IMG/VR virus record: IMGVR_UViG_3300020598_000119
Origin: a virus
Lineage: Duplodnaviria; Caudoviricetes
DNA: 64,000 bases
Reading direction: 5' to 3' (one strand)
A program made the position numbers and the translations under genes. The notes under the pieces were generated by a model, which ran no database searches, was not told the DNA's origin, and saw only the letters and a program-made list of their open reading frames with translations. Position 1 is the stretch's first letter. Every line of letters starts with the position of its first letter. Shown here in pieces: positions 3,169 through 43,236 of this stretch.

Positions 3169-5802
3169 TTAATCGTCCTCATCCTGCAGAAGGGAGGTCA
3201 GGAAGTCTTCTACAGGCGCACTGTTCGGGTCCCAAGAACCGTCACCACCGTCGTCGTCCTTACCGTCATCTCCGTCATCGTTAAATACATGTACGGCCGA
3301 AGCGGATGCAGTTGCTGAAGTCGCGATATCACTCTTCGTGAAATCAAAATCATCCTCAATCTCATCACCATCATCCGACGAAAGAGCTTCTTCGATATAA
3401 TTATCAACGCTCTCCCTAGTCTCTACTTTTTCATCAAAATTCAGAGCTGCCAAGGTTTTTAGGACATTTTGGTTTGATGACATTCTATCCGTCATCTTCT
3501 GAATATCTCCCCCGACCTCAGTGCCATGAGGAACATCCTTTTTCATACCGCTATTAATCGGCCTCGGGCGCGAAGCAAATGGCGGTCGACCCTGTTCTTC
3601 CGGCTCAGGGCTAAACTCTTCGGGCATAGATTCCGGTCGTGAACGACGAGCGGTTCCAGGTCGACTTTCGCTAGGAACTTTTGCGCCATCGTCGAACGGA
3701 ATATTCTCGATGTCCTGTGGGACACTGTGCTCACCAGGCACCCCTGCCCCAGTAGCCGCACCAATTTCACGCGCATAAGCCTGTGACGTCTTGCGGTTCT
3801 CGGCGTTGAGCTTCGCGTAAGCGATACAGGTGATATCTGCACGGTGAGCTGGGGCACGCTTGGAGGCTTCAATTTCCTTCAGCGAATGCGCGATAATACC
3901 AATGTCAGTATCCGTGGCGATATTCTGCATCGCATTGGCAGCCATGATTTTGACCTGCTTCGCAAATTCTGGGTCAGCCATTTTTGCGATAATTTCAGGT
4001 AATTTCTGTTGTTTTTCGATCTCTTCGCGATCAGGTTTTGCCACTGTGATGAAATAGTTGGCTCGCAGCTTCAAATTGTTCTTGTTAACTGCGCCTTCTG
4101 GATTCGCGTAGAACGATTTTGCTCGAACGACCCAGCCCTTATGAATGATGTGCATTTCACCTTCGTCCTGATCTTTCAGGTCGAGCGGATTAATGCGATC
4201 AACTTCTTCGGCACCAGCCTTCATGTCATCCCGATAAGAGCGGCCGCCAACTTCTCCAGGCTTGCCATCAAAGTTTTTCATGCGGGCTAGCCACATTTTG
4301 CCTGCAGCTTTGACACCAAGTTCTGCAGTGTCTTCGTCTTCAGTTCTCATGATGATCTTGGTGTTGGTGTTACCGCGCACCGAACCAAAAACCTTCTCGT
4401 TCAAGCTCTTCATAGCGTTGATGTCCTGACCCGCGAAGATCAGAGAGAAACCAAGCGAACGAGCCTGCGCAGCCATGAGATCCATACCGTCGACCATGTA
4501 ATAACCCACCTCGTCGAGAACGACGATGAACGGGCTAGGCGAGTTGGTTGGGCGATTGACAACGACGGAGTCCCAAGTGCCTTCAATTTCAGAACCGAGG
4601 GTACCACCCATCATGCCCTTCAACGTGGCCACGACGATCTTGCCGAGGTTGGCAATTTCGTCTCGTGATTTTTCGAGGGCAGGAAGCATAATAACAAGGA
4701 TACGGCGATTAAGAACAACGTCAGCCATATCGATCTCACCATACGGCGTATGGAAGATGTGTCCATAAACGTCAGCAAGAGAACCAAGTATCTTGGTAAA
4801 CTGCATTTCAAGGTAGCCGTGCTGGTCAAGTGTAGTCTGAGACTGTTTGTATCCCTTGTCTTCCTGGAAGCCCGGAAGTGAGGTCATATATGAACGAATG
4901 CTTTTGCGGATTGAAGGCGGCATCTCTTGGTACTTGTCTTTATCTGCCAAGTCGATAATGCGCTTCAACTGAAGATGGTCGCGAATTTCTGAAACGTTGA
5001 GGTCGATATAATTGTTGTCACGCAGCCAGGTCAGAGCGCGCATGACACCCGTAAACATAGCAGCAGCACGACCTTTCCACATCGCCCCGTCGCCGCCAGC
5101 GTCGTCCATAAGGCCGACAACCATCTGAGTGAGCGTATCCGAAGAACCAGTGGCGAACGGGTTCAGCGTGTTGGACATGAGCTTTCCGCCACCGCCGCCG
5201 ATGTCCTGGTTGCCTGTCATGTAGTTGAGAACGAGGAGGTCGTCTTCGCGGCCGAAACGACGGCACAAAGCATAGACCTTCGAAAAGAGAGCAACGTCAC
5301 CCTTACCGTCACAAAAGAGAAAACCGGAACCCCAAGCGACAGCATTAGCTGCGAAGCCGAGCAGGGCTTCGGTCTTACCAGCACCAGTCGTACCCAAAAC
5401 AAGAAAATGCTGACGGCAATCAGAGTTGGTAAGCCAAACTTCTTTTGCCGTTTTCAGCTCATTGCCTAAGAAAAAAATGCCCTGTGCTATCGAAGGCTTA
5501 GAAGTGGCAGGGTGTCGCTCATTAGCGTCCATCATTTTTGATTGAATAGGCAATTTGAGTGGAGAGGTCTCCTCTTGCTTCAAACCAAACCACGTAAATA
5601 AACACGCAAAGATCAGACATAAATCTGCGACGGCTGGTATGATAAATGCGAGCGCAGCAAAAAATAGCAGAAAAGTTGCCAGATTTTGCGGCACCTTCAG
5701 CCAATCGACAATTTTCTTGCTTAGTGGCCGTGCGTCTCTAGCGAGATCTATAGCCCTAATTTCTTGCCTGCCCTCAGGGCCTCGCATTTGTTTCTGGGAC
5801 AT
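3169..5802 (-). CDS. type IVB secretion/conjugation coupling protein (IcmO/DotL/TrbC family)
   Basis: N-terminal TM helices, Walker A 'GTTGAGKT', 'DGKGD', 'LDEVGYY', 'AQARSLGFS..FAGQD', acidic tail. Confidence 0.9.
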   Translation of the reverse strand: MSQKQMRGPEGRQEIRAIDLARDARPLSKKIVDWLKVPQNLATFLLFFAALAFIIPAVADLCLIFACLFTWFGLKQEETSPLKLPIQSKMMDANERHPATSKPSIAQGIFFLGNELKTAKEVWLTNSDCRQHFLVLGTTGAGKTEALLGFAANAVAWGSGFLFCDGKGDVALFSKVYALCRRFGREDDLLVLNYMTGNQDIGGGGGKLMSNTLNPFATGSSDTLTQMVVGLMDDAGGDGAMWKGRAAAMFTGVMRALTWLRDNNYIDLNVSEIRDHLQLKRIIDLADKDKYQEMPPSIRKSIRSYMTSLPGFQEDKGYKQSQTTLDQHGYLEMQFTKILGSLADVYGHIFHTPYGEIDMADVVLNRRILVIMLPALEKSRDEIANLGKIVVATLKGMMGGTLGSEIEGTWDSVVVNRPTNSPSPFIVVLDEVGYYMVDGMDLMAAQARSLGFSLIFAGQDINAMKSLNEKVFGSVRGNTNTKIIMRTEDEDTAELGVKAAGKMWLARMKNFDGKPGEVGGRSYRDDMKAGAEEVDRINPLDLKDQDEGEMHIIHKGWVVRAKSFYANPEGAVNKNNLKLRANYFITVAKPDREEIEKQQKLPEIIAKMADPEFAKQVKIMAANAMQNIATDTDIGIIAHSLKEIEASKRAPAHRADITCIAYAKLNAENRKTSQAYAREIGAATGAGVPGEHSVPQDIENIPFDDGAKVPSESRPGTARRSRPESMPEEFSPEPEEQGRPPFASRPRPINSGMKKDVPHGTEVGGDIQKMTDRMSSNQNVLKTLAALNFDEKVETRESVDNYIEEALSSDDGDEIEDDFDFTKSDIATSATASASAVHVFNDDGDDGKDDDGGDGSWDPNSAPVEDFLTSLLQDEDD

Positions 5803-18080: not shown

Positions 18081-18156
18081 TGGCGCGACCGGGGAGAGTC
18101 GAACTCCCGACCTCCTCGTTCGGAGCGAGGCGCTCTATCCACTGAGCTACGGCCGC
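18081..18156 (-). tRNA. tRNA-Arg(CCG)
   Basis: cloverleaf, CCTCG-CT CCG AA-CGAGG, CCA end. Confidence 0.92.
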
Positions 18157-18164
18157 ATTTAAGG

Positions 18165-18240
18165 TGGAGCGCACGGCAGGATTCGAACCTGCATAAATCG
18201 GCTTCGTAGACCGATGCCACATCCCTTGGACCACGTGCGC
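18165..18240 (-). tRNA. tRNA-Arg(ACG), divergent D-arm
   Basis: TCGGT-CT ACG AA-GCCGA, GTTCGAATC, CCA. Confidence 0.85.
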
Positions 18241-18281
18241 GAATTATTTATGACGTTTGTCCAGATCGTCATAAAAAGAAG

Positions 18282-18359
18282 TGGCACGTTTGACAGGATT
18301 CGAACCTGTGACCTTCGGTTTCGTAGACCGACGCTCTGATCCAGCTGAGCTACAAACGC
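18282..18359 (-). tRNA. tRNA-Arg(ACG)
   Basis: TCGGT-CT ACG AA-ACCGA, CCA. Confidence 0.92.
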
Positions 18360-18414
18360 AATCTCAATTAAAAGGCGGCTGCACCAGCGCCAAATAATCG
18401 AAACCATGAAACTG

Positions 18415-18490
18415 TGGTGCCATCAGCGAGGATCGAACTCGCGACTTTCGGCTCTTCAGACCGACGCTCTACCAACTGAGCTACAATGGC
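18415..18490 (-). tRNA. tRNA-Phe(GAA)
   Basis: TCGGT-CT GAA GA-GCCGA, CCA. Confidence 0.92.
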
Positions 18491-18522
18491 TTAGAAAGGG
18501 CTTTCGCTCTTTCGATGATTTG

Positions 18523-18551
18523 ACTATGCCAGACACAAAAACCTGAGTCAA
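18523..18551 (-). promoter_or_regulatory. sigma70-like promoter immediately upstream of tRNA-Phe
   Basis: TTGACT-N17-CATAGT. Confidence 0.5.
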
Positions 18552-18717
18552 CAACAAAAATAAAAAAAGATAATATTTTCAAACGCTTACATGGAAAATC
18601 AGCATGCAAAAAGGCTTCTCGGGAAGTTCGTTCCCAAGCTAAAAATCAAACATTTCGCTCCTAAATCGAGCCTTTTTTCGCCGTCGTCGTCGCATCGCTT
18701 TCTCCAGTTTCAAGACA

Positions 18718-18766
18718 ATAAAAAAGGCTGGGGCTTCGTACCTTCCGGTAGAAGCCCCAGCCTTTG
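18718..18766 (-). terminator. attenuator terminator of the Phe/Arg tRNA operon
   Basis: AAAGGCTGGGGCTTC..GAAGCCCCAGCCTTTTTT on the minus strand. Confidence 0.8.
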
Positions 18767-18789
18767 CTTTAACAGTGATCAGTCTTAGA

Positions 18790-18876
18790 TCATGTCATGC
18801 GCAAGCGCGTTGGAAGCCATCCGACCGGATGTCCAATAACGCTAAATCGCCGACGAATGATCAAACCAACTGACAT
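18790..18876 (-). CDS. leader peptide MSVGLIIRRRFSVIGHPVGWLPTRLRMT (Arg/Phe control codons)
   Basis: AAAGGGA RBS; CGT CGG CGA TTT; stop about 25 nt before the terminator. Confidence 0.7.
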   Translation of the reverse strand: MSVGLIIRRRFSVIGHPVGWLPTRLRMT

Positions 18877-19335
18877 GTTTTTCCCTTTTAGATAGACCAG
18901 CTTTGGCTTGTTTCATAATTCATTTTCGAATTATGTCCCCACCGCCATTGAGGGGATCCAAATTTGTCATTGATTTGCTATGAAGCACCTCAATGGCGCA
19001 TCTGCACCATGCTTTGACACATAGGGCAGATATTCTGTGCATTAAACGGACAATGCATGATCCACATTAGTATGACCTTGATAATCCACTCACTGTAGCC
19101 ACGTCTCTGCGACGAACGAACCATCTGCGGTTCTTGGTCGAGCAGCTATCAAGCATACTGTGCAAATCAGACATATCCGTTTAATACTATTCACAAATCT
19201 AGCCATATTTAAGAAAATGGCAACTTATTTCTTTTTGCCTTTATGAATTTTTAACAGGGCAATTAAGGCCATCCACGCCATGAGGCGAATTATGAAACAA
19301 GCCACTTATATACAGGTCCCGACAACAGTCAAGAA

Positions 19336-21589: not shown

Positions 21590-23419
21590 TTATCGGAATC
21601 GATAGGCCACAGGATCAGGGGAAATCATCCCAGAAATTGGCGCGACCTCTTCGCAGTCCATCAAACCATCGAGGTTCATTTCTTGATACTTCTTGTTCAC
21701 GAACGGGAACCAGGGCATGACAGCTAGATTCAGGGTGTCGCGGTCCTTCCAGTCATAACCACAGAGCCTCTCAATACCATCATCAGGGATCGGAATATCG
21801 TCGAGGAAGGCGCTGATCAGCTTTCGGTTGAGCTTTACCTGTCCCGAGAGGATTGCCGACATGTACCAAGCGGTGGCGTCTTTTGCCTTAGGACTTGCGG
21901 CTGTATTTCCATGAGCCATGTTCTGCTTAACACGCAGCATGTCGTTTGAAGGATTTAAGGAGTCGAATTCGATTGTCGAATGGCGGCGTTCTATAGCCCC
22001 ATTTTCATCCAACGAACGAACCGACACGATGAACGATTGGCACGTTTCTGCGACACGGGTGTAACCACCGACGCAGTGGTTCATTGCTGCCCCTTCCTGT
22101 TGCAATTCAATCGTACTGCGAAGGGGAACAAGCCACAGGCCGTTGGGAGCCTGAACAGGCTCAGTCAAACCAGGCCAAGTGTTGGCCTCTATCGAGCGTC
22201 TCAGCTCTTGTCGGTTCTCGGCCTCAATCTGCGCCGTGCCACTCAAGATGTCATTGCGGCCAAGGTGGAAGCGACGCTGTTGATCTGCGATGTCGGTCAG
22301 TGATTTGCCAGCAATGATCATCTCGAATGCCGCTGCACGGGCGGCAATACCCATCTCTGGAGTTACCATGACCTCGTCACTGTCACCACCATGGGCGGAC
22401 AGGGGGAGGACTACAAAATTTTTGAAATCCTCAAGCATGTCAGCCGTGTTTCGCATCGCAAGACGGAAGTCTTCCTCAGGATCAGCCATATCTACATCAA
22501 GGCTCTCGGGGATGGTAAGGTGAATGCGGAAGTATTCTTCAAGTTTGGCCTGCTCAATACCCGCCTTCTTGATTACGCGCTGACAAAAGTCTGTCCATTT
22601 ACCTTGTGCTGATTTGACCATAGGCCCCACAGAATGATCACTAGCAGCCAGATCTTCGAATATACCTCCGGCGACCTGACAAAACGAGCGCCAGTCTTGG
22701 CCCGAGGTCGGTATCCAATCTGGCGGAACCAGCGACATCAAACGAACCACAGACGAAAGCTTCACACCGTTCGGAATGGTGTCGGCCGTCGAAAGGCGCT
22801 TGAGAACTGGCTTCGTAATTGAAGCGTCGACGATTTTTGAGAGCAAATTGACAACCGTATCAGCGATTGGCTTCTTACGGTCCACCGCCATTTTTGCAGT
22901 CAAATTCGATGATAAAAGGTCGGCTAGGATCGGATAGCTCGCCGCAGCCTGACGCCGAATAAGGGCGCGATCATTATCGCCAGCATAGAATTCGTAAGCT
23001 GCTTTAGTTTGCTGATAGCTTTTGGCAATAGCATCGAGACCTTTGTGGTCAAAGTTTTTCACGCGATTTTTTTCGCTCGAAATCAACTCAGCAAGCTCAC
23101 TTCTTGCCTCTTCACGAAATTCAAACGGCAGGTTCAATTGATCCATAAGATCATCGACACGATCACCACCAACCATTGCGAACGCCCACGGTGCATGTGC
23201 ACGACTATCTGTCGGGCTTTCCGTAAGGAGACCCATGGCGTCTTCGACGTGGAACTGTTTGAAACTTGTCGCCGAAGAATATGTCAAAGTGCCCTCATCA
23301 TTCCCAACGATTATGCAAACAGACAATTTGACATCGTCACGATAGGAAAGGGCATACCCGTCCCCCGTAGGTGAGGAAATAGAGGTTAATTTAACCCCGA
23401 GTTTTTCCAAAATACTCAT
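21590..23419 (-). CDS. PcfJ-domain protein
   Basis: 'ELQQEGAAMNHCVGGY...IVSVR...STIE'. Confidence 0.75.
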   Translation of the reverse strand: MSILEKLGVKLTSISSPTGDGYALSYRDDVKLSVCIIVGNDEGTLTYSSATSFKQFHVEDAMGLLTESPTDSRAHAPWAFAMVGGDRVDDLMDQLNLPFEFREEARSELAELISSEKNRVKNFDHKGLDAIAKSYQQTKAAYEFYAGDNDRALIRRQAAASYPILADLLSSNLTAKMAVDRKKPIADTVVNLLSKIVDASITKPVLKRLSTADTIPNGVKLSSVVRLMSLVPPDWIPTSGQDWRSFCQVAGGIFEDLAASDHSVGPMVKSAQGKWTDFCQRVIKKAGIEQAKLEEYFRIHLTIPESLDVDMADPEEDFRLAMRNTADMLEDFKNFVVLPLSAHGGDSDEVMVTPEMGIAARAAAFEMIIAGKSLTDIADQQRRFHLGRNDILSGTAQIEAENRQELRRSIEANTWPGLTEPVQAPNGLWLVPLRSTIELQQEGAAMNHCVGGYTRVAETCQSFIVSVRSLDENGAIERRHSTIEFDSLNPSNDMLRVKQNMAHGNTAASPKAKDATAWYMSAILSGQVKLNRKLISAFLDDIPIPDDGIERLCGYDWKDRDTLNLAVMPWFPFVNKKYQEMNLDGLMDCEEVAPISGMISPDPVAYRFR

Positions 23420-26400
23420 GCACACATCTCCAGGGCTTTAGCCTGATGTTCGTTTTCATCAACAAAGTCACGGCGGTATTTGCTGTCGACGTAGAACGTG
23501 TTAATCCCAGAATTATTCAAAATTTCCAACACATCACGCAAATCATCAACGCTGGTAATCGTTACAGATGAATGAGTGTTGCTGGTCAATTCTCCGCTTT
23601 CAAACAGCTCTTTAAATGCTTCAGATGGCCATTTACGCCCTGCACGGCTATTGCGCGGAGCTGGGATGGTAAGATTCCACGTATCACGTCCAAATGGAGA
23701 GATTTTCAACGCATTCTTTGAAGAAGTGGCCGAATTGGTGACCTCGGCACGTTTATCAACAAGCGCATTGAGAGCCTGTTCAACACCGTCAAGGCGAACC
23801 GCCAATTTTTCGAGATGGGATTCAAAGTTCTTTTTTACCAAAACACCGCGATGGCGATTACCTTCCGAGTCCACGTAGGAAATCATCTGACCGAGATTGT
23901 ACTTGGTCGCCAAACGGACGGCACGGAAAATGTTGGTCGAGAGAATACGAGCAGGCGTCAGTTTCTTTGCTGATGCGCCTTCGAACCTCTCCAGCACCTT
24001 GTCATAATCCGAACCCGTCAGGCCGTCAGATACATTGAATTTAACGCCGCCGTTCTTTTCGAAAGTAGCGACCTGCATATCCTGCAAAAGCGTGCTCAAA
24101 CGAACAGACGTGATGCGTGTCTGACCTGGAATGGCAAGCGAAACTGTGTACTGGCTGCGGAGGTGATGATAGCCAGACGGCGGCGCATATACAGCAGTTA
24201 CGATAGCCTTGACCTTTTCCGCATCGAGGCCATGAGCAAGCTCAACCTCACGACCTGGGATCAGCGCACGCAATGCAGCCGCCGTAATTTCCATATCGCT
24301 CTTGATCTGCATAAGCTTCGGGTTGTTTTTCTCCAGTGCCTCCTGAACAGTTCTAATGTTCTTTGGCATGTAGATTTCGAGATAGACTTCTGGGCTTTCT
24401 GTAATGTTGTCAGCAGCCTTCTCGACTTCACCGTAAACCTCGGTACCAGCCTCAACAGCTTCCATCAGCGCTTCTGAACGAATGGATTCTGCAACTCGTT
24501 CGATAACGACATCACGGATGTGCATCGGGCCATCGAAAGCCGTAACTGCAGCAGAGTTCTCATTGCCCTCAAAGAGACGTGCATCACGAATGTGAACCAT
24601 GCCTTCGAGTTCCTTCGGACGAAGCGGGTTTTCGCCGCGAGCCTCAAGTTCTGCGATATGCAGCTCGTATTCGGCTGTTAGCTCAGACAGAACCTTTTCC
24701 TGATAATCAGTTGGCAACAACGCGAGGCGAGACATGAACTCGTTCGCCGAACGGTCATTGTCCTGACGGCTTTCACTTTCGACATCTTCGTCAGTACCAG
24801 GAACATTCACAACGCCTTCCTCGTCGACATATGAGAGACATAGCTTCTTTACGAGATCTGGTCGCATTTCCGCATATTTGGAGACAACCTGATCGCCGAC
24901 CGAATTGATCAAGTCTGGAATGTTCTTCGTCAGGAAGATGCTGTCACGATTTGATGTCACGTTTGCCGAGAGACGGCGCAGTTTCTGGTTTCTCATAGCT
25001 GCAAGACGCACTTCAACAGGAAGTCCGCTGGAGAGGACTTCAACACGAGATGGGACAACCTCATCGTAACGGCTGACACGACCATAAGCCTGAATCTGCT
25101 TCAGGACATATGCAGGCCCTTGTAGCTCGATCATCACGCGACGGCGCTGATCCTTGAAACGGCGCGAGGCGTGCAGGTCGATGCCCGTGCTACCAGCTGA
25201 GTTGATGACGAGAGCGTCGACTTCGCCAGCGTTGAAGGAGTTTTTGGTTTTGGTGACGTTGCGCTCCTTGCGCGGGACAACCTTGCCGTCGACCACTTCA
25301 AGCACTCGTCCCGTGATCTCCCCACAGGAGAACCCAGCATCACGAATTTTACCCTTAACGACGTCAATTGCCGATGCTGGCAAATCAGGAAGCTGATCGA
25401 TCATAGCGTTGATGTGGGAAAGCGTAGCCTGCACGGCCTCATTGCCTTCTGCAGCATCAACACGGTTCAGACCCCCATCGTCATCAGTGTACGACATCTT
25501 GGTTAGCTGGCCGAGGATGCGTCTCATGACGTCCTTGAAGTCAGGAGCGTCACCGCCATCAAGCTCTGCATCCTTGAGAATGCCTTGAATAGTGTTTTCG
25601 ACGAGGACGATAGGCTTTTCGCCATTCTGCAGGGCGGTTACGGCCCGTTCAGCGGCAAATTCAGCAAGAAGCGCGGCCGAGAAGAGCCGTATCATCGTGT
25701 AAAGCGGAGAGCCGAAGCCCATGCGCTTAAGCTGAATACCCTTCAAAAGGCTGCCATCAGTATTGTTTCGAGCATTGACAACACGGTCCATCTCACCGGA
25801 CAGGACAGCCATCTCTCCTATGACAGCGGCCAAAGCGTCCATGTGATTGCGATTTCTCTCAACGCGTTCGCTATCGAGATGCTGGCTGATCTCCAGCTTG
25901 GACATGTCCTTCTCACGACGGATCATGACGCCATCGGTCACCAGCATAGAAGAGACAACTTCCATGAACTGCTCACCGCCTTTGCGCATCATCGCAGCAA
26001 TTTCAGAGCCGCTCATTCCGTACGGGAACAGCCGTTCAAAGAATGCCATCGCCCGAGCGTCTCCAGCGAATGTGGCTGACGAAAGAACTGGAGGGCCGGA
26101 TGCCTCAATTGCATGCGCAATGTTTTCGGAAGTGTTCGAGTTACCGCTTGCCGCAACGTGAATTTCATCGCCCACCACAAGCGTCTCGGCATCAATGACT
26201 TCGCGTAGCCACGCAGCACGTGCCGAATCTTCTGGCGACTGATTGAACTGGCTGTAGGTAGCAAAGACGACAGGGATGTCGTCCGGCCAGGTCTTATCAG
26301 CGATTGCCTTTTCAAGAATGGAGCGATCCCCGAGTTCAAACGCCTTACCAGTAGATTCATCGATCAGCGAAGCGTCCTGGTTCATGACCACTGGCTTGAC

Positions 26401-28062
26401 ATCGCCGAGTGCGTTGATGTGTTTGAGATCACGCATCAGGTCTGAGAGATTCATTGCCTTTTCAGTAAGCACGAGAACCTTGCGTCCCTGCAGAGCCGCA
26501 CGCTTGACCAGCGCCATAAGGGCACGTCCTTTACCGACGCCAGTGTTATCCGCGAACAGGAACGCACGACCGCGCTCTTCCGCGTGGATTGCCAGACCAA
26601 CACCATCGATCTGTTCTGGAGAAAGCCTCTCGCCCAATTCATCCAGCGGAATGCCGCACTCGATAGAGACACGCTTGTCGACGTCTTCAAAATTTTCGAC
26701 CAAGCGGTTCAGGGCAGAACGAGTCGCCTCGTCCAGTTCCTTCGGCACCATAGTAATTGGTTTATTCGTTTTAGAAGCGGACTTGTACGGTACCTGATGG
26801 GAATTCTGAGCCATTGTAGCGGCCGTAAGCTCCGCTCCCGTAGAAAGGCCAGAGCGAACGCTTTCCATCGCGCGGGCGCGTTCCGAGACCGTAACTGATG
26901 CCCACGACCAAAACGCAGCTTCGTCATTGATCTCAGCGATAGCTGGAATTTCAGCCGGATCACCAATGGAAGACGTCACGACCAGCGACTTGCTCGACTG
27001 ACCGAGATCGACCAATGCCGCTGCTTCGACTGGACCGTGCTTCGCCAACTCTGCCAAGACCACTGACGCAGCGTTCATATCGGCAACAGGAACGAAGCTG
27101 ACAGTCATTGACCTAGCCTTTCGCCCCCGCAGGTCGGCGAGCGCCGTTTCCTTACTGTCTGCAAAAGATAGAACGAAGTCGGCTTCTTCCGCTTTTTCAG
27201 CAGCGCGAACAGCTTTCGGTTTAAACTGATCGAACAGATCGGAGCGACCACCTGACAAATAGATGGAATGACCAAGAAGATCTCGATCCATGCCGAGGAG
27301 GCGGCGTCCAATTACGATCTGATCAAAATTGCTGTCTTTACCGAGATCGTACTTTTCAAAAGCACGAGCGATATCGAGAGAAACAGAGAAGCGTTCGCGA
27401 AGGGTTTTGATGCCTTTGCGGCCGACGAAACGAAGGGCTGCTTCTTTAACTGCAGTAACGAATTCATCCTTACGCGAAGGCTCGACACCAATTGTCTTCA
27501 TGTAGGTATCGATGCTGATCATCTGATCAGTGCCATGCGTCTTTACAGCGGTTTCAACAAAGCCTTCGGCACACATGGTGAAAGAGGTTTCGTCGACGGC
27601 ACGCAGGAACATGCCTGGGCTACTTGCGGCCATGCCCTTCTCTTTGATCTGACGACCTCTGGAGTCGACAAAAACGCGCTCGCCATTTTCTTCAACGATC
27701 TTCTGACCCTGTCTATTGTAGCCCAGGAGGACAGCCTTCTTGATATCTGATGTACTGATCAGATCTGACGAAGCATCAGTGTCCGCAGATGGCTTAGGCG
27801 GCTCGATACGGAGGACGTACTCTCCCTGTTCGTGCTCACGGATTTTCAGATTCGGAAACTCGCGCTGAAATTCACGCGGGTTGAGCTGCGTTGCATTAGG
27901 CTTGATCCAACTATTTCCTGTTGGTCGTTTTTGAAAGCCAAGGCGGCGAACGGCATCAATATGCTGATCAGGAACTTTATCCAACAGTAAAACTTGTGCA
28001 GTCGGCATAACTGCAAGGTGCAGTTTCATCCCATATTCAGATAAATCAAGCCACTTCGCCAT
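23416..28062 (-). CDS. strawberry-notch family SF2 helicase/ATPase
   Basis: 'EQIDGV', 'ADNTGVGKGR', 'TYSQ', 'DEIH', 'SATF', 'AGSTGIDLHAS', 'Q.YGRV.R'. Confidence 0.88.
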   Translation of the reverse strand: MAKWLDLSEYGMKLHLAVMPTAQVLLLDKVPDQHIDAVRRLGFQKRPTGNSWIKPNATQLNPREFQREFPNLKIREHEQGEYVLRIEPPKPSADTDASSDLISTSDIKKAVLLGYNRQGQKIVEENGERVFVDSRGRQIKEKGMAASSPGMFLRAVDETSFTMCAEGFVETAVKTHGTDQMISIDTYMKTIGVEPSRKDEFVTAVKEAALRFVGRKGIKTLRERFSVSLDIARAFEKYDLGKDSNFDQIVIGRRLLGMDRDLLGHSIYLSGGRSDLFDQFKPKAVRAAEKAEEADFVLSFADSKETALADLRGRKARSMTVSFVPVADMNAASVVLAELAKHGPVEAAALVDLGQSSKSLVVTSSIGDPAEIPAIAEINDEAAFWSWASVTVSERARAMESVRSGLSTGAELTAATMAQNSHQVPYKSASKTNKPITMVPKELDEATRSALNRLVENFEDVDKRVSIECGIPLDELGERLSPEQIDGVGLAIHAEERGRAFLFADNTGVGKGRALMALVKRAALQGRKVLVLTEKAMNLSDLMRDLKHINALGDVKPVVMNQDASLIDESTGKAFELGDRSILEKAIADKTWPDDIPVVFATYSQFNQSPEDSARAAWLREVIDAETLVVGDEIHVAASGNSNTSENIAHAIEASGPPVLSSATFAGDARAMAFFERLFPYGMSGSEIAAMMRKGGEQFMEVVSSMLVTDGVMIRREKDMSKLEISQHLDSERVERNRNHMDALAAVIGEMAVLSGEMDRVVNARNNTDGSLLKGIQLKRMGFGSPLYTMIRLFSAALLAEFAAERAVTALQNGEKPIVLVENTIQGILKDAELDGGDAPDFKDVMRRILGQLTKMSYTDDDGGLNRVDAAEGNEAVQATLSHINAMIDQLPDLPASAIDVVKGKIRDAGFSCGEITGRVLEVVDGKVVPRKERNVTKTKNSFNAGEVDALVINSAGSTGIDLHASRRFKDQRRRVMIELQGPAYVLKQIQAYGRVSRYDEVVPSRVEVLSSGLPVEVRLAAMRNQKLRRLSANVTSNRDSIFLTKNIPDLINSVGDQVVSKYAEMRPDLVKKLCLSYVDEEGVVNVPGTDEDVESESRQDNDRSANEFMSRLALLPTDYQEKVLSELTAEYELHIAELEARGENPLRPKELEGMVHIRDARLFEGNENSAAVTAFDGPMHIRDVVIERVAESIRSEALMEAVEAGTEVYGEVEKAADNITESPEVYLEIYMPKNIRTVQEALEKNNPKLMQIKSDMEITAAALRALIPGREVELAHGLDAEKVKAIVTAVYAPPSGYHHLRSQYTVSLAIPGQTRITSVRLSTLLQDMQVATFEKNGGVKFNVSDGLTGSDYDKVLERFEGASAKKLTPARILSTNIFRAVRLATKYNLGQMISYVDSEGNRHRGVLVKKNFESHLEKLAVRLDGVEQALNALVDKRAEVTNSATSSKNALKISPFGRDTWNLTIPAPRNSRAGRKWPSEAFKELFESGELTSNTHSSVTITSVDDLRDVLEILNNSGINTFYVDSKYRRDFVDENEHQAKALEMCA

Positions 28063-38729: not shown

Positions 38730-38794
38730 AATTCTTCATGCACGGGCCGAGCAGCGCCACTGAAGGCAGTAGGTCTCGGCCCGTTAGTTTAACT

Positions 38795-38886
38795 TGGTGG
38801 GGGACGGCTAGAGTTGAACTGCTTGCCGCATAGGGACCCGGTTTACAGCCCGGTGACAGGACCGCCCATCCTTATTGGCGTCCCCC
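38795..38886 (-). tRNA. atypical tRNA with GTA (Tyr) anticodon, 8-bp acceptor stem
   Basis: GGGGGACG/CGTCCCCC-ACCA, D-stem AGGAT/GTCCT, loop CT GTA AA. Confidence 0.6.
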
Positions 38887-38891
38887 ATAAA

Positions 38892-39105
38892 TGGTGGAGA
38901 TGACAGGATTTGAACCTGCGCAGACCGTGATGACCTTCGCATTACCAAAGGCTCCCAATTGGTTTGAAACGCGCTTCCCTACTCGGCCCTCTCTGGCTGT
39001 TTCGGTGCATCCGCAAAGACCCCAATCGAGATTTGTCACGTCCCTGTTTTACCAGAGCCGGATTCCGTTTCCCGGTGCCCATGCCGACCTCAGGCGGACA
39101 TCCCC
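38892..39105 (-). ncRNA. 214-nt tmRNA-like RNA (tRNA-like domain with G3-U70)
   Basis: GGGGATG/CATCTCC-ACCA, T-arm GCAGGTTCAAATCCTGT. Confidence 0.55.
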
Positions 39106-39107
39106 AT

Positions 39108-39185
39108 TGGCTTGAACGGCAAGGATTTGAACCTGCGACCTCCTGGACCCATTCCAGGCGCGCTCCCAGACTGCGCTACATTCAA
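39108..39185 (-). tRNA. degenerate tRNA-Pro-like (TGG, A at position 33)
   Basis: Pro-type D-arm TAGCGCAGTCTGG, CCTGG-AA TGG GT-CCAGG, CCA. Confidence 0.55.
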
Positions 39186-39406
39186 GACAAACTAGATTTG
39201 ACCAAAACATGGTCAGAAACTTTTGGCACTCACAGCGACGCCAAGGATCATCAGTCGCTGTCTCTCCACGGGAGAGGGATCTTCAGGCTCGTCCACGATC
39301 CGCCGCCTGTTCCTAAAAGTGCCACCGAAACAGCAGCTGGCCAGCCGCCATTCCGCAGGCTTCCTGGGATTGTTCTAGAATTTGCCCAGTATAGCCTTTG
39401 AAGCTG

Positions 39407-39990: not shown

Positions 39991-40040
39991 AAAAAAAAAG
40001 AAGAACCCTCGTTAGCGGTCGGCCAGCGAGGGTTCTTCTT
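39991..40040 (-). terminator. attenuator terminator of the Leu/Pro/His/Tyr tRNA operon
   Basis: AAGAAGAACCCTCG..CGAGGGTTCTTC followed by T9. Confidence 0.85.
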
Positions 40041-40067
40041 GGTCTGATCGAAGGATTTACTTAAGCG

Positions 40068-40229
40068 TTAAAATCCTTCTTTCGCCAATACAGCCCGCTG
40101 ACCGCAACCCAGATACGGGAGCGGTAACAAATGGGGGGGATGAGGCAGAGCGGAAACGGCACGCGTCAGGGCGACGCGAGCAGAAACTGCCGCAACCTTT
40201 CCCTGTACTGTCTGTGCCGAAGCGTTCAT
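40068..40229 (-). CDS. leader peptide MNASAQTVQGKVAAVSARVALTRAVSALPHPPHLLPLPYLGCGQRAVLAKEGF
   Basis: GAGGA RBS; 13 consecutive Leu/Pro/His/Tyr codons at 40148-40110. Confidence 0.8.
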   Translation of the reverse strand: MNASAQTVQGKVAAVSARVALTRAVSALPHPPHLLPLPYLGCGQRAVLAKEGF

Positions 40230-40274
40230 CGTTCTATCCTCAAAGTTGGCGACTGGAATTCGTCGTGTTGCCTA

Positions 40275-40303
40275 TAGATGAATGACGTCGGCGAAACTGT
40301 CAA
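40275..40303 (-). promoter_or_regulatory. sigma70-like promoter of the leader/tRNA operon
   Basis: TTGACA-N17-CATCTA. Confidence 0.55.
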
Positions 40304-41794: not shown

Positions 41795-41823
41795 TTGACA
41801 CATTCCGCCGTCTAATTCATATC
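41795..41823 (+). promoter_or_regulatory. sigma70-like promoter of the Ser/Gln leader
   Basis: TTGACA-N17-CATATC. Confidence 0.55.
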
Positions 41824-41847
41824 TAGGGAAGATCAAGGAGTTTAGAA

Positions 41848-41940
41848 ATGTTCGTTCAGTCGTCCCAACAGCAATCCAGCCAGTCGAGTTCATCAAGCTC
41901 GAACGCGGTGCTGTGCGCGGTGACTGATCCGAAAATCTGA
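41848..41940 (+). CDS. leader peptide MFVQSSQQQSSQSSSSSSNAVLCAVTDPKI
   Basis: AAGGAG RBS; 15 consecutive Ser/Gln codons. Confidence 0.85.
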   Translation: MFVQSSQQQSSQSSSSSSNAVLCAVTDPKI

Positions 41941-41965
41941 CCTCAATATCAGATCAAAAGGTTTC

Positions 41966-41992
41966 AGAACCCGCCCAAAAGGCGGGTTTTTT
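41966..41992 (+). terminator. attenuator terminator of the Ser/Gln tRNA operon
   Basis: AACCCGCC-caaaa-GGCGGGTTTTTT, 6 nt before the first tRNA. Confidence 0.85.
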
Positions 41993-41998
41993 GTATGC

Positions 41999-42090
41999 GG
42001 AAACATGGCTGAGAGGCTTAAAGCAGCGGTTTGCTAAACCGTCAGGGAGGTAAAATACCCTCGGGAGTTCGAATCTCCCTGTTTCCGCCA
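41999..42090 (+). tRNA. tRNA-Ser(GCT)
   Basis: GCGGT-TT GCT AA-ACCGT, long variable arm, GCCA. Confidence 0.92.
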
Positions 42091-42131
42091 CGAATTCGAA
42101 TTTTCTGTCCGCAGGGAATTCAAACAAATAC

Positions 42132-42219
42132 GGAGCTGTGACCGAGTGGCTTAAGGTGGCAGTCTTGAAAACTGATGCGGCTAACCCCGCCGTAGGTTCG
42201 AATCCTACCAGCTCCGCCA
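42132..42219 (+). tRNA. tRNA-Ser(TGA)
   Basis: CAGT-CT TGA AA-ACTG, GCCA. Confidence 0.9.
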
Positions 42220-42253
42220 CAATTTTGGCTTATTTATTTATGGGAGAAGGGCC

Positions 42254-42457
42254 ATGACAGTACACGAAATAAATGCTCCGGTTGATGCCGTAGACGCAGC
42301 TGTCATGGCCCTTGTGGAAGCCCATGTTGATAAGGCTCAACAGGCCAGAGAACGATCCAATCTGAGGGGATGGTTCGTTGGCCAGACGATGAAGCAGCTT
42401 AATGGAACTGCAGAGCGTCAAACAGTCGAAATCGCAGTGAATAAGGCACTGCAATAA
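42254..42457 (+). CDS. stand-alone GatB/YqeY C-terminal (tRNA-binding) domain-like protein
   Basis: 'LRGWFVGQTMKQLNGTA' resembles the GatB tail 'GFFVGQVMK..KGKA'. Confidence 0.6.
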   Translation: MTVHEINAPVDAVDAAVMALVEAHVDKAQQARERSNLRGWFVGQTMKQLNGTAERQTVEIAVNKALQ

Positions 42458-42492
42458 TAGGAGTTTCGGCCTAATAAATGGGCCAAAGAATT

Positions 42493-42582
42493 GGAAAGAT
42501 GGCAGAGTCCGGTTGATTGCACTCGCCTCGAAAGCGAGCAAGCCGCAAGGCTTCGGGAGTTCAAATCTCCCTCTTTCCGCCA
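42493..42582 (+). tRNA. tRNA-Ser(CGA)
   Basis: CTCGC-CT CGA AA-GCGAG, GCCA. Confidence 0.92.
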
Positions 42583-42588
42583 GCACGT

Positions 42589-42662
42589 TGGGGATTAGTT
42601 TAATGGTAGAACGGCGGACTCTGAATCCGTTGGTCCTGGTTCGAGTCCAGGATGCCCAGCCA
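42589..42662 (+). tRNA. tRNA-Gln(CTG)
   Basis: U1-A72, GCGGA-CT CTG AA-TCCGT. Confidence 0.9.
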
Positions 42663-42679
42663 AGAATTACGAAATAAAT

Positions 42680-42754
42680 TGGGGCGTCGCCAAGCGGTAA
42701 GGCATCGGTTTTTGGTACCGACATGCGGAGGTTCGAATCCTCCCGCCCCAGCCA
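42680..42754 (+). tRNA. tRNA-Gln(TTG)
   Basis: U1-A72, TCGGT-TT TTG GT-ACCGA. Confidence 0.92.
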
Positions 42755-42778
42755 TTTTCGTAGTTAATTCGTTAAATT

Positions 42779-42866
42779 GGAGCCGTGGCAGAGTGGTTGA
42801 ATGCACTCGCTTGGAAAGCGGGCAGACCGCAAGGTCTCGGGAGTTCGAACCTCCCCGGCTCCGCCA
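42779..42866 (+). tRNA. tRNA-Ser(GGA)
   Basis: CTCGC-TT GGA AA-GCGGG, GCCA. Confidence 0.92.
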
Positions 42867-42888
42867 ATTATTAAATAAGGAAAAATCC

Positions 42889-43125
42889 ATGAGCAATGAG
42901 TCGATTAACATCAAAGAACACGTCACTGCAGGACCGTGCACACTCGTTTGCGCGCGAGCAGGCAATCTCTGGTATCGAACTGCTCTTGGATTTGAATTCC
43001 CAGTGCCTTTCTCGGATATGGGTGACGCGACTTTCTCGTCCGAGGAGAAAGGCATGATGCTCATGCGCTACATCCGAAAGCACAATGAAACGATCACTGC
43101 TGCGCGACAACAACAAGTCGCGTAG
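42889..43125 (+). CDS. small phage-like hypothetical protein inside the tRNA operon
   Basis: AAGGA RBS; 'LWYRT..GFEFPVP.SD.GDATF...EK....MRYIRK'. Confidence 0.65.
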   Translation: MSNESINIKEHVTAGPCTLVCARAGNLWYRTALGFEFPVPFSDMGDATFSSEEKGMMLMRYIRKHNETITAARQQQVA

Positions 43126-43161
43126 GCAGTCGTCTTTCTCTCATTAGACGACTTTTGATGA

Positions 43162-43236
43162 TGCCGAGTCGTCTAATGGTAGGATCTGAGCCTTTGAAGC
43201 TACAGGACGTGGGTTCGACCCCCACCTCGGCATCCA
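43162..43236 (+). tRNA. tRNA-Gln(TTG), atypical bulged anticodon stem
   Basis: TGCCGAG/CTCGGCA-TCCA, AGC-CT TTG AA-GCT. Confidence 0.7.

Follow-up and report, generated by a model that had tools for sequence, protein, structure and literature searches.

Amino-acid biosynthetic genes, and others related to them, are known to be controlled by leader-peptide attenuation, with trpL, hisL, leuL and pheL among the leaders and with multivalent examples in ilvL, which precedes ilvGMEDA (Ile/Leu/Val), and thrL (Thr/Ile). Bacterial tRNA genes, by textbook account, are controlled at the promoter, through growth rate and the stringent response. T-box riboswitches of Firmicutes bind uncharged tRNA directly, with neither open reading frame (ORF) nor ribosome, and control aminoacyl-tRNA synthetase and amino-acid genes; in the mgtP leader of Salmonella mgtCBR, Pro codons couple ribosome speed, including its dependence on EF-P, to read-through. 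Attenuator-like regions upstream of the Escherichia coli tRNA-Phe genes pheU, pheV and pheW were reportedly described in papers of the 1980s; in our full-text literature searches, no paper turned up that describes tRNA genes under leader-peptide attenuation. The pheL attenuator has been described (PMC3082878), and loss of one tRNA-Phe gene, the pheR case, de-represses pheA 6-7-fold (PMC3082878), so attenuators respond to tRNA gene dose as well as to amino acid. The nearest published system in function to the one described here is the trn operon of 26 genes on a megaplasmid of Anabaena sp. PCC 7120, which is normally silent and is induced by translational stress via the ribbon-helix-helix (RHH) repressor TrcR (PMC8421152, PMC10272220). 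Here we analyze a 64-kb stretch of DNA (IMG/VR virus record IMGVR_UViG_3300020598_000119; hereafter the window), in which an array of ten tRNA genes for Leu, Pro, His and Tyr is preceded by an intrinsic terminator and, before it, a short open reading frame that contains a run of codons for those four amino acids. Judged from its sequence, the locus, on a rhizobial megaplasmid-like element, is likely a ribosome-mediated leader-peptide attenuator whose output is the accessory tRNA array; this form of attenuation is probably real, and would amount to classical attenuation applied to tRNA genes.

The cassette lies on the minus strand of the window, whose positions serve as coordinates throughout; features are on that strand unless marked (+). 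It begins with a predicted promoter, P1, in which a perfect -35 hexamer, TTGACA (40303-40298), with an A-rich stretch upstream, is followed after a 17-nucleotide spacer by a candidate -10, CATCTA (40280-40275). This -10 is non-canonical, and an E. coli-consensus promoter scan does not pick it up and misses P1 too; CAT-type hexamers are found at the same spacing in arrays A3 and A4, and the window has exactly two copies of the motif TTGACA-N14-ATKCAT, one preceding this leader and the other the leader of a Ser/Gln array considered below. A Shine-Dalgarno sequence, GAGGA (40241-40237), lies 7 nucleotides 5' of an ATG at 40229, which opens a leader ORF of 53 codons plus UAA (40229-40068, UAA at 40070-40068); the leader peptide matched no Pfam family. 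Codons 28-40, LPHPPHLLPLPYL (40148-40110), read CTG CCT CAT CCC CCC CAT TTG TTA CCG CTC CCG TAT CTG and encode L P H P P H L L P L P Y L. An initial sequence-only reading of this DNA had placed the leader, with its 13-codon run, at these positions, and both coordinates and sequences hold to the base.

Following the terminator and a 135-nucleotide spacer, the array of ten tRNA genes identified by ARAGORN and Rfam (39855-37897) runs in the order Tyr-GTA, Leu-CAA, Pro-TGG, Leu-TAG, weak Pro-TGG, Pro-TGG, His-GTG, Leu-GAG, Leu-TAA, Leu-CAG, the weak Pro-TGG (39108-39185) scoring 31.8 bits and having a counterpart that ARAGORN calls Ser-GGA in the closest genome, that of Mesorhizobium sp. SP-1A. 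Both programs bear out the earlier statement that the array holds all five Leu anticodons together with Pro-TGG, His-GTG and Tyr-GTA, and tRNAs for no other amino acid. All 13 control codons specify amino acids carried by the downstream tRNAs and, with relaxed wobble for the sole Pro tRNA (TGG), all are readable by the array. Rfam searches at gathering and permissive thresholds found tRNAs alone, with no leader family on the correct strand and no T-box; a match to His_leader is sub-threshold (28 bits versus 49) and on the opposite strand. The long gaps within the array (38730-39406) hold degenerate tRNA-like pieces, with sub-threshold matches to a tRNA-Sec-like segment at 38800-38885 and a tmRNA-like segment at 38892-39105.

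The control run is well beyond chance expectation. It is the longest run of Leu, Pro, His or Tyr codons in the six frames of the window, the runner-up having 7, and with these four amino acids at a frequency of 0.175 in the long ORFs of the element, the probability of 13 in succession is 1.4e-10 per position. Coverage of the Leu isoacceptors in the window leader alone is not significant (P ~0.16); in two metagenome relatives, L031 and L032, six Leu codons sample all five Leu isoacceptors (chance ~0.02). The fold of the leader RNA is better than that of 200 of 200 dinucleotide shuffles (z = -4.1).

The leader RNA can form mutually exclusive helices in the 1:2/2:3/3:4 arrangement. The first, H1, is a putative anti-antiterminator (1:2) of 11 base pairs (bp) and -13.2 kcal/mol between 40128-40117, within codons L34-P38 of the run, and 40110-40097. 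The antiterminator (2:3) pairs strand 2, CGGUCAGCGGG (40104-40094), with strand 3, CUCGCUGGCCG (40030-40020), over 11 bp that include two G-U pairs, and encloses a stop hairpin in which GAAGGAUUU (40079-40071) pairs with AAAUCCUUC (40058-40050), with the UAA at 40070-40068 in its loop. The intrinsic terminator (3:4; 40040-39991) has a 14-bp lower stem (40040-40027 with 40011-39998), an inner stem of 4 bp (40025-40022 with 40016-40013) and a run of nine T ending at 39991; its energies range from -27.7 to -31 kcal/mol, the window value being -27.7. Strand 3 lies partly in the upper end of the terminator 5' arm and partly in the inner stem. H1 and the antiterminator share strand 2, and the antiterminator and terminator share strand 3. 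The antiterminator, with its two G-U pairs, and the enclosed hairpin with the stop codon in its loop had been proposed beforehand, and we recover both, the hairpin by folding; of the switch as a whole, the proposed antiterminator and terminator stand, and H1, which had been missing, was found by folding.

To model the switch, a ribosome footprint was masked codon by codon, and the nascent RNA was folded before the terminator 3' arm exists (3' end at 40012). With no ribosome, H1 forms all 11 bp and the antiterminator 1 bp in the minimum-energy fold, with ensemble probabilities of 0.72 and 0.29, respectively. When the A site is on codons 34-38, the antiterminator forms 11 of its 11 bp in the minimum-energy fold, and its ensemble probability is 0.8-0.9 over codons 33-38; at codon 39 the values are 6/11 bp and, depending on the footprint, 0.38-0.81. 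From codon 41 to the stop, the antiterminator falls to 0 bp (0-1 bp at the stop) and a probability of ~0, and from codon 49 to the stop H1 forms 8-11 bp, reaching 11 bp with the ribosome at the stop, with probabilities of 0.6-0.88. All four amino acids are represented in the effective stall zone, H L L P L P (Y), which coincides with the run. H1 is needed in this logic because a ribosome at the stop covers merely ~40085-40057, which leaves the antiterminator strand uncovered; without H1, strand 2 would be free. The antiterminator fold and the alternative of terminator plus stop hairpin are nearly isoenergetic (-35.2 versus -37.0), which suits a kinetic switch.

We compared six sequences: the window, Mesorhizobium sp. 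SP-1A and the metagenome relatives L025, L031, L032 and L033. The SP-1A cassette, on a 1.19-Mb contig (contig 2), is 99% identical to that of the window, and a protein search with the leader gave four clusters at 85-91% identity, with contigs from JGI metagenomes and Logan assemblies. The leader ORF is intact in the five relatives (83-96% identity), and GAGGA precedes the ATG in all six sequences, offset by two alignment columns in L031. The TTGACA hexamer is unchanged across all relatives, and both the spacer that follows it and the A-rich stretch upstream are variable in the alignment. Every relative has the Ser/Gln array divergent on one side of the locus and the leader followed by Tyr and Leu-CAA, and the full series of Tyr, Leu, Pro, Leu, Pro, His, Leu, Leu, Leu is present on the four contigs long enough to show it. 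More distant relatives did not emerge: among 201 genomes of the family to which the host belongs, a BLAST search with the leader found only the near-identical SP-1A, all else being short and at chance level; scans with the back-translated leader found one locus each in genome and metagenome contigs, both known variants; and a megablast of PLSDB with the 5.5-kb two-array region returned single-tRNA matches alone. An exact look-up of a neighboring 343-amino-acid protein gave no record.

The ORF, frame and run are kept in all six sequences, with LPHLPHLLPLPYL or a one-residue variant of it in five, the exception being the window with its Pro-Pro. The six substitutions within the run comprise four synonymous changes, one Pro to Leu, which stays within the set, and one Pro to Ser. 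Pairing is complete (100%) in both H1 and the antiterminator in each of the six sequences, over all 11 bp in the latter. In L025 and L033, C40104 is replaced by U, its H1 partner G40122 by A and its antiterminator partner G40020 by A, and this three-way compensation is what two alternative helices with a common strand predict. Two pairs of H1 differ among the sequences: a G-C pair is replaced, with compensation, by A-U, and a C-G pair by U-G, the Pro-to-Ser substitution of L032 keeping a U-G pair. Each arm of the terminator of L025 and L033 has an insertion, and the two, an A and a U, compensate each other. The lower 5 bp of the stop hairpin are invariant, and the stop codon is in the loop in the four sequences traced (window, SP-1A, L025 and L031). 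The covariation is consistent with alternative helices and is not decisive.

Conservation extends to either side of the switch. Two small conserved hairpins follow the terminator (39980-39951), CCCC-GAAA-GGGG and GUUCUGC-UCCC-GCAGAAU, and the relatives have compensatory changes in the alignment (CCCC/GGGG to CCUC/GAGG; inner C-G to U-A), which suggests that the post-terminator spacer acts as RNA. A segment of this region, GGGGGUUCUG, resembles the 3' arm of the terminator, GAGGGUUCUUC. Within the first 27 codons of the leader (40150-40225), a block, VQGKVAAVSARVAL, is conserved at the nucleotide level. In the minimum-energy structure this block folds as a long hairpin, which may serve in pausing or timing.

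The Pro-Pro codons of the window had also been suggested to confer sensitivity to EF-P or m1G37 status. The EF-P idea fails as a conserved design feature, in that Pro-Pro is found in the window alone and the five relatives read Leu-Pro (CTC CCC or CTC CCA), and we have rejected it.

The match between leader and array recurs across the element. On contig 2 of SP-1A, between ~935 and 1066 kb, 45 tRNA genes lie in seven amino-acid-sorted arrays spanning ~130 kb and covering all 20 amino acids, and the ORF upstream of each of the seven is rich in the amino acids of that array. In an unbiased scan of the seven upstream regions against the seven tRNA sets, using all frames, all windows of 6-21 codons and codon sets based on anticodons, the true pairing of leaders with arrays is the best of 5040 permutations. 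The match extends to isoacceptors: CGT/CGG/CGA codons precede Arg-ACG/CCG and AGA precedes Arg-TCT, just as ACG/ACA precede Thr-CGT/TGT and ACC precedes Thr-GGT, which points to tRNA sensing over amino-acid sensing. SP-1A has 92 tRNA genes, about half of which (~45) are dispersed on other contigs with the rest in arrays, and the dispersed set in the host makes the arrays a second, spare set. They are in this sense an accessory long tRNA array (L-array), with tandem tRNAs on a mobile-type element duplicating a dispersed housekeeping set. Taken together, the geometry, the masked folds, the relatives and the codon-array match over seven arrays lend in silico support to the earlier proposal of an attenuator whose codons match its tRNAs.

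In the model that we propose, transcription would start at P1 and the leader would be translated during its synthesis. If Leu, Pro, His and Tyr codons are decoded fast, the ribosome would reach the UAA at 40070 and H1 would re-form behind it, codons 34-38 pairing with strand 2; with strand 2 locked by H1, the 3:4 terminator would form and transcription would end at 39991, before tRNA-Tyr. Were the ribosome to stall while one of codons 33-39 (H L L P L P Y) is in its A site, it would cover strand 1 and block H1, so that strand 2 (40104-40094) could pair with strand 3 (40030-40020) once the latter has emerged, and the terminator could not nucleate in time. The resulting antitermination would allow RNA polymerase to read into the ten tRNA genes. 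Because the product is tRNA, the loop closes only on a shortage of usable tRNA, not of amino acid, and would then shut itself off. We infer that the cassette, on a conjugative megaplasmid-like element, acts as a homeostat by which demand sets the supply of spare Leu, Pro, His and Tyr tRNAs; its trigger could be tRNA-targeting toxins or a codon-usage mismatch between the 50%-GC element and its host.

An attenuator of this kind might instead respond in nature to general translational stress or amino-acid starvation, such as ribosome-targeting antibiotics or low Leu, Pro, His and Tyr, which would make the array stress-induced, like the Anabaena trn operon. Classical attenuators do read the supply of charged tRNA, which amino-acid starvation lowers; an uncharged tRNA and a missing one look the same from sequence; and the Anabaena plasmid tRNA array is induced by translation-targeting antibiotics (PMC8421152, PMC10272220). 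We nevertheless think this signal unlikely: extra tRNA gives no relief from amino-acid starvation, a sensor of amino acids has no need of the isoacceptor match (Arg AGA versus CGN; Thr ACR versus ACC), and seven sensors for seven tRNA sets suggest set-specific demand over a general alarm.

A second cassette of the window is of similar design. This Ser/Gln cassette (41795-43236, +) shares the promoter motif and likewise comprises a Shine-Dalgarno sequence, an ORF, here of 30 codons (41848-41940), and a terminator, and its leader contains 15 consecutive Ser/Gln codons, QSSQQQSSQSSSSSS, which sample TCG, TCC, TCA, AGY, CAG and CAA. Its array (41999-43236, +) consists of four Ser and three Gln tRNAs, the first being tRNA-Ser-GCT, and the T-run of the terminator ends ~4 nucleotides before that first tRNA, which leaves no room for a promoter. 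Between its tRNA-Ser-TGA and tRNA-Ser-CGA lies a 67-amino-acid ORF (42254-42457, +), present in relatives too, whose product matches a C-terminal GatB/YqeY domain above the Pfam cut-off (30.6 bits versus 27) and may be a tRNA-related helper protein.

Several observations count against this reading of the locus as an attenuator. Of the 14 bp in the lower terminator stem, the antiterminator takes just the uppermost 4, together with the inner 4-bp stem, and the minimum-energy fold of the full-length RNA is the terminator under every mask, so that antitermination must depend wholly on kinetics, as it does in known attenuators. The early control codons L28, H30 and P31 yield little antiterminator in the model, the 27 codons that precede the run are unusually many for a leader peptide, and the covariation is essentially one evolutionary event among six close sequences, with shuffle controls that are not significant. 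The Ser/Gln leader, in the same ribosome-mask test with a crude metric, gave no clean switch. A weak promoter-like TTGAAT-N19-TATTCT (~39912-39882) and the two conserved hairpins lie between the terminator and tRNA-Tyr, and the array may have a separate transcription start within this spacer. Lastly, a second promoter is predicted between the leader terminator and the tRNAs of four arrays (Phe/Arg, Lys, Glu/Asp and the 13-gene array), and attenuation may be just one input at these four.

The thermodynamic dominance of the terminator under every mask, together with the weak covariation statistics, would fit a terminator that is a fixed, leaky dampener holding the array at a low constitutive level, the codon run and the alternative pairings being coincidental or vestigial. 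We give this reading very little credence, as it must put down to accident a run with a chance of ~1e-10 per position, an antiterminator and an H1 that are 100% paired in six sequences with their changes compensated, and an effective stall zone that coincides with the run.

The spacer raises a different issue, namely that the ORF could be an independent small gene or small-RNA unit with its own terminator, the array being transcribed from a promoter in the 135-nucleotide spacer and the terminator merely insulating the two. Such an arrangement would accommodate the conservation of the N-terminal 27 codons in the relatives, the weak TTGAAT-N19-TATTCT in a conserved spacer, and the promoters that follow the leader terminators of four other arrays. 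It is nonetheless quite improbable: no site between the terminator and tRNA-Tyr passes the E. coli-consensus scan (the scan that also misses P1), and the P2-type motif seen before the four other arrays is absent there; the peptide has no Pfam family; and the ~4-nucleotide gap at the Ser/Gln array affords no promoter space. Nor does it explain the match of 13 codons to the downstream tRNAs, repeated likewise at seven arrays, or an H1 and antiterminator with three-way compensatory change. Leader-peptide attenuation remains our preferred reading of the Leu/Pro/His/Tyr cassette.

The Phe/Arg array (18081-18900), with Phe-GAA, two copies of Arg-ACG, and Arg-CCG, exemplifies the arrays with two predicted promoters. 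On its 5' side are an ORF with RRRF (CGT CGG CGA TTT), a terminator and a second ORF, MRRRRRKKARFRSEMFDF (RRRRRKKARF), and directly before the tRNAs is a predicted, strong-looking promoter, TTTTGTTGTTGAC (18559-18547), preceded by A/T-rich sequence; the layout recurs in SP-1A at the Lys, Glu/Asp and 13-gene arrays. No such second promoter was found at the Leu/Pro/His/Tyr, Ser/Gln and Trp/Thr/Cys/Arg arrays. Elsewhere in the window, genes at 3169-5802 and 21590-28062 code for a TraG/TrwB-type coupling protein (T4CP), a PcfJ-like protein and a 1548-amino-acid Strawberry-notch-type (Sbno) helicase, by which the window looks like part of a conjugative megaplasmid-like element; the GC content of the element is ~50%.

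A broader proposal, which we regard as a real possibility short of a likely one, is that the cassette is one of seven sensors in a self-contained, demand-driven spare-tRNA system, in which a full decoding set is carried and its cassettes are induced by ribosome stalling at isoacceptor resolution. Such a system could restore translation after attack by toxins that cleave or inactivate tRNAs, such as anticodon nucleases, tRNase colicins and contact-dependent toxins, or could enable an element of 50% GC to match tRNA supply, in whatever new host it enters, to the codons that it uses itself, with almost no cost while idle. If the attenuator operates as proposed, a leader that tests codons read by its own downstream tRNAs would provide direct feedback on tRNA supply, and would explain how plasmids can afford large accessory tRNA sets, carried at low cost and put to use when demand arises. 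Two further gains would be a search signature, a codon-matched leader and terminator before a tRNA array, and a naturally occurring, modular sensor for shortages of particular tRNA isoacceptors, one open to study in a culturable Mesorhizobium strain. The question bears on conflicts over tRNA among mobile elements, phages and tRNA-targeting defense or toxin systems.

The locus shares with enterobacterial leader attenuators a Shine-Dalgarno sequence, regulatory codons in succession within a short ORF, 1:2, 2:3 and 3:4 helices that exclude one another and a terminator before the regulated genes, and with the multivalent leaders among them, as we propose, the sensing of several amino acids by one leader. 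It differs from them in that the regulated genes are for tRNAs rather than biosynthetic enzymes, that four amino acids are represented by mixed synonymous codons which sample isoacceptors, and that the leader is long (53 codons, 27 of them before the run), belongs to no Rfam leader family and resides on an alphaproteobacterial mobile element. As with the T-box, the state of specific tRNAs would set the choice between terminator and antiterminator; unlike the T-box, which binds tRNA directly, an ORF and a ribosome are proposed as the sensor. The mgtP leader, the analogue on which the EF-P suggestion draws, likewise has Pro codons in its ORF; in the cassette described here Pro-Pro occurs only in the window and not in the five relatives. 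The Anabaena L-array is similar in being a redundant megaplasmid tRNA set beside a dispersed housekeeping set, and in having conditional expression tied to the state of translation, as we propose here. The means of control that we propose is different: the Anabaena repressor binds direct repeats at the trn promoter, and the words leader and terminator, and the stem attenuat-, do not occur in the paper describing it (PMC8421152), whereas here we find a leader and a terminator. Moreover, Anabaena has one operon, while the element described here has seven amino-acid-sorted cassettes, each with its own putative sensor.

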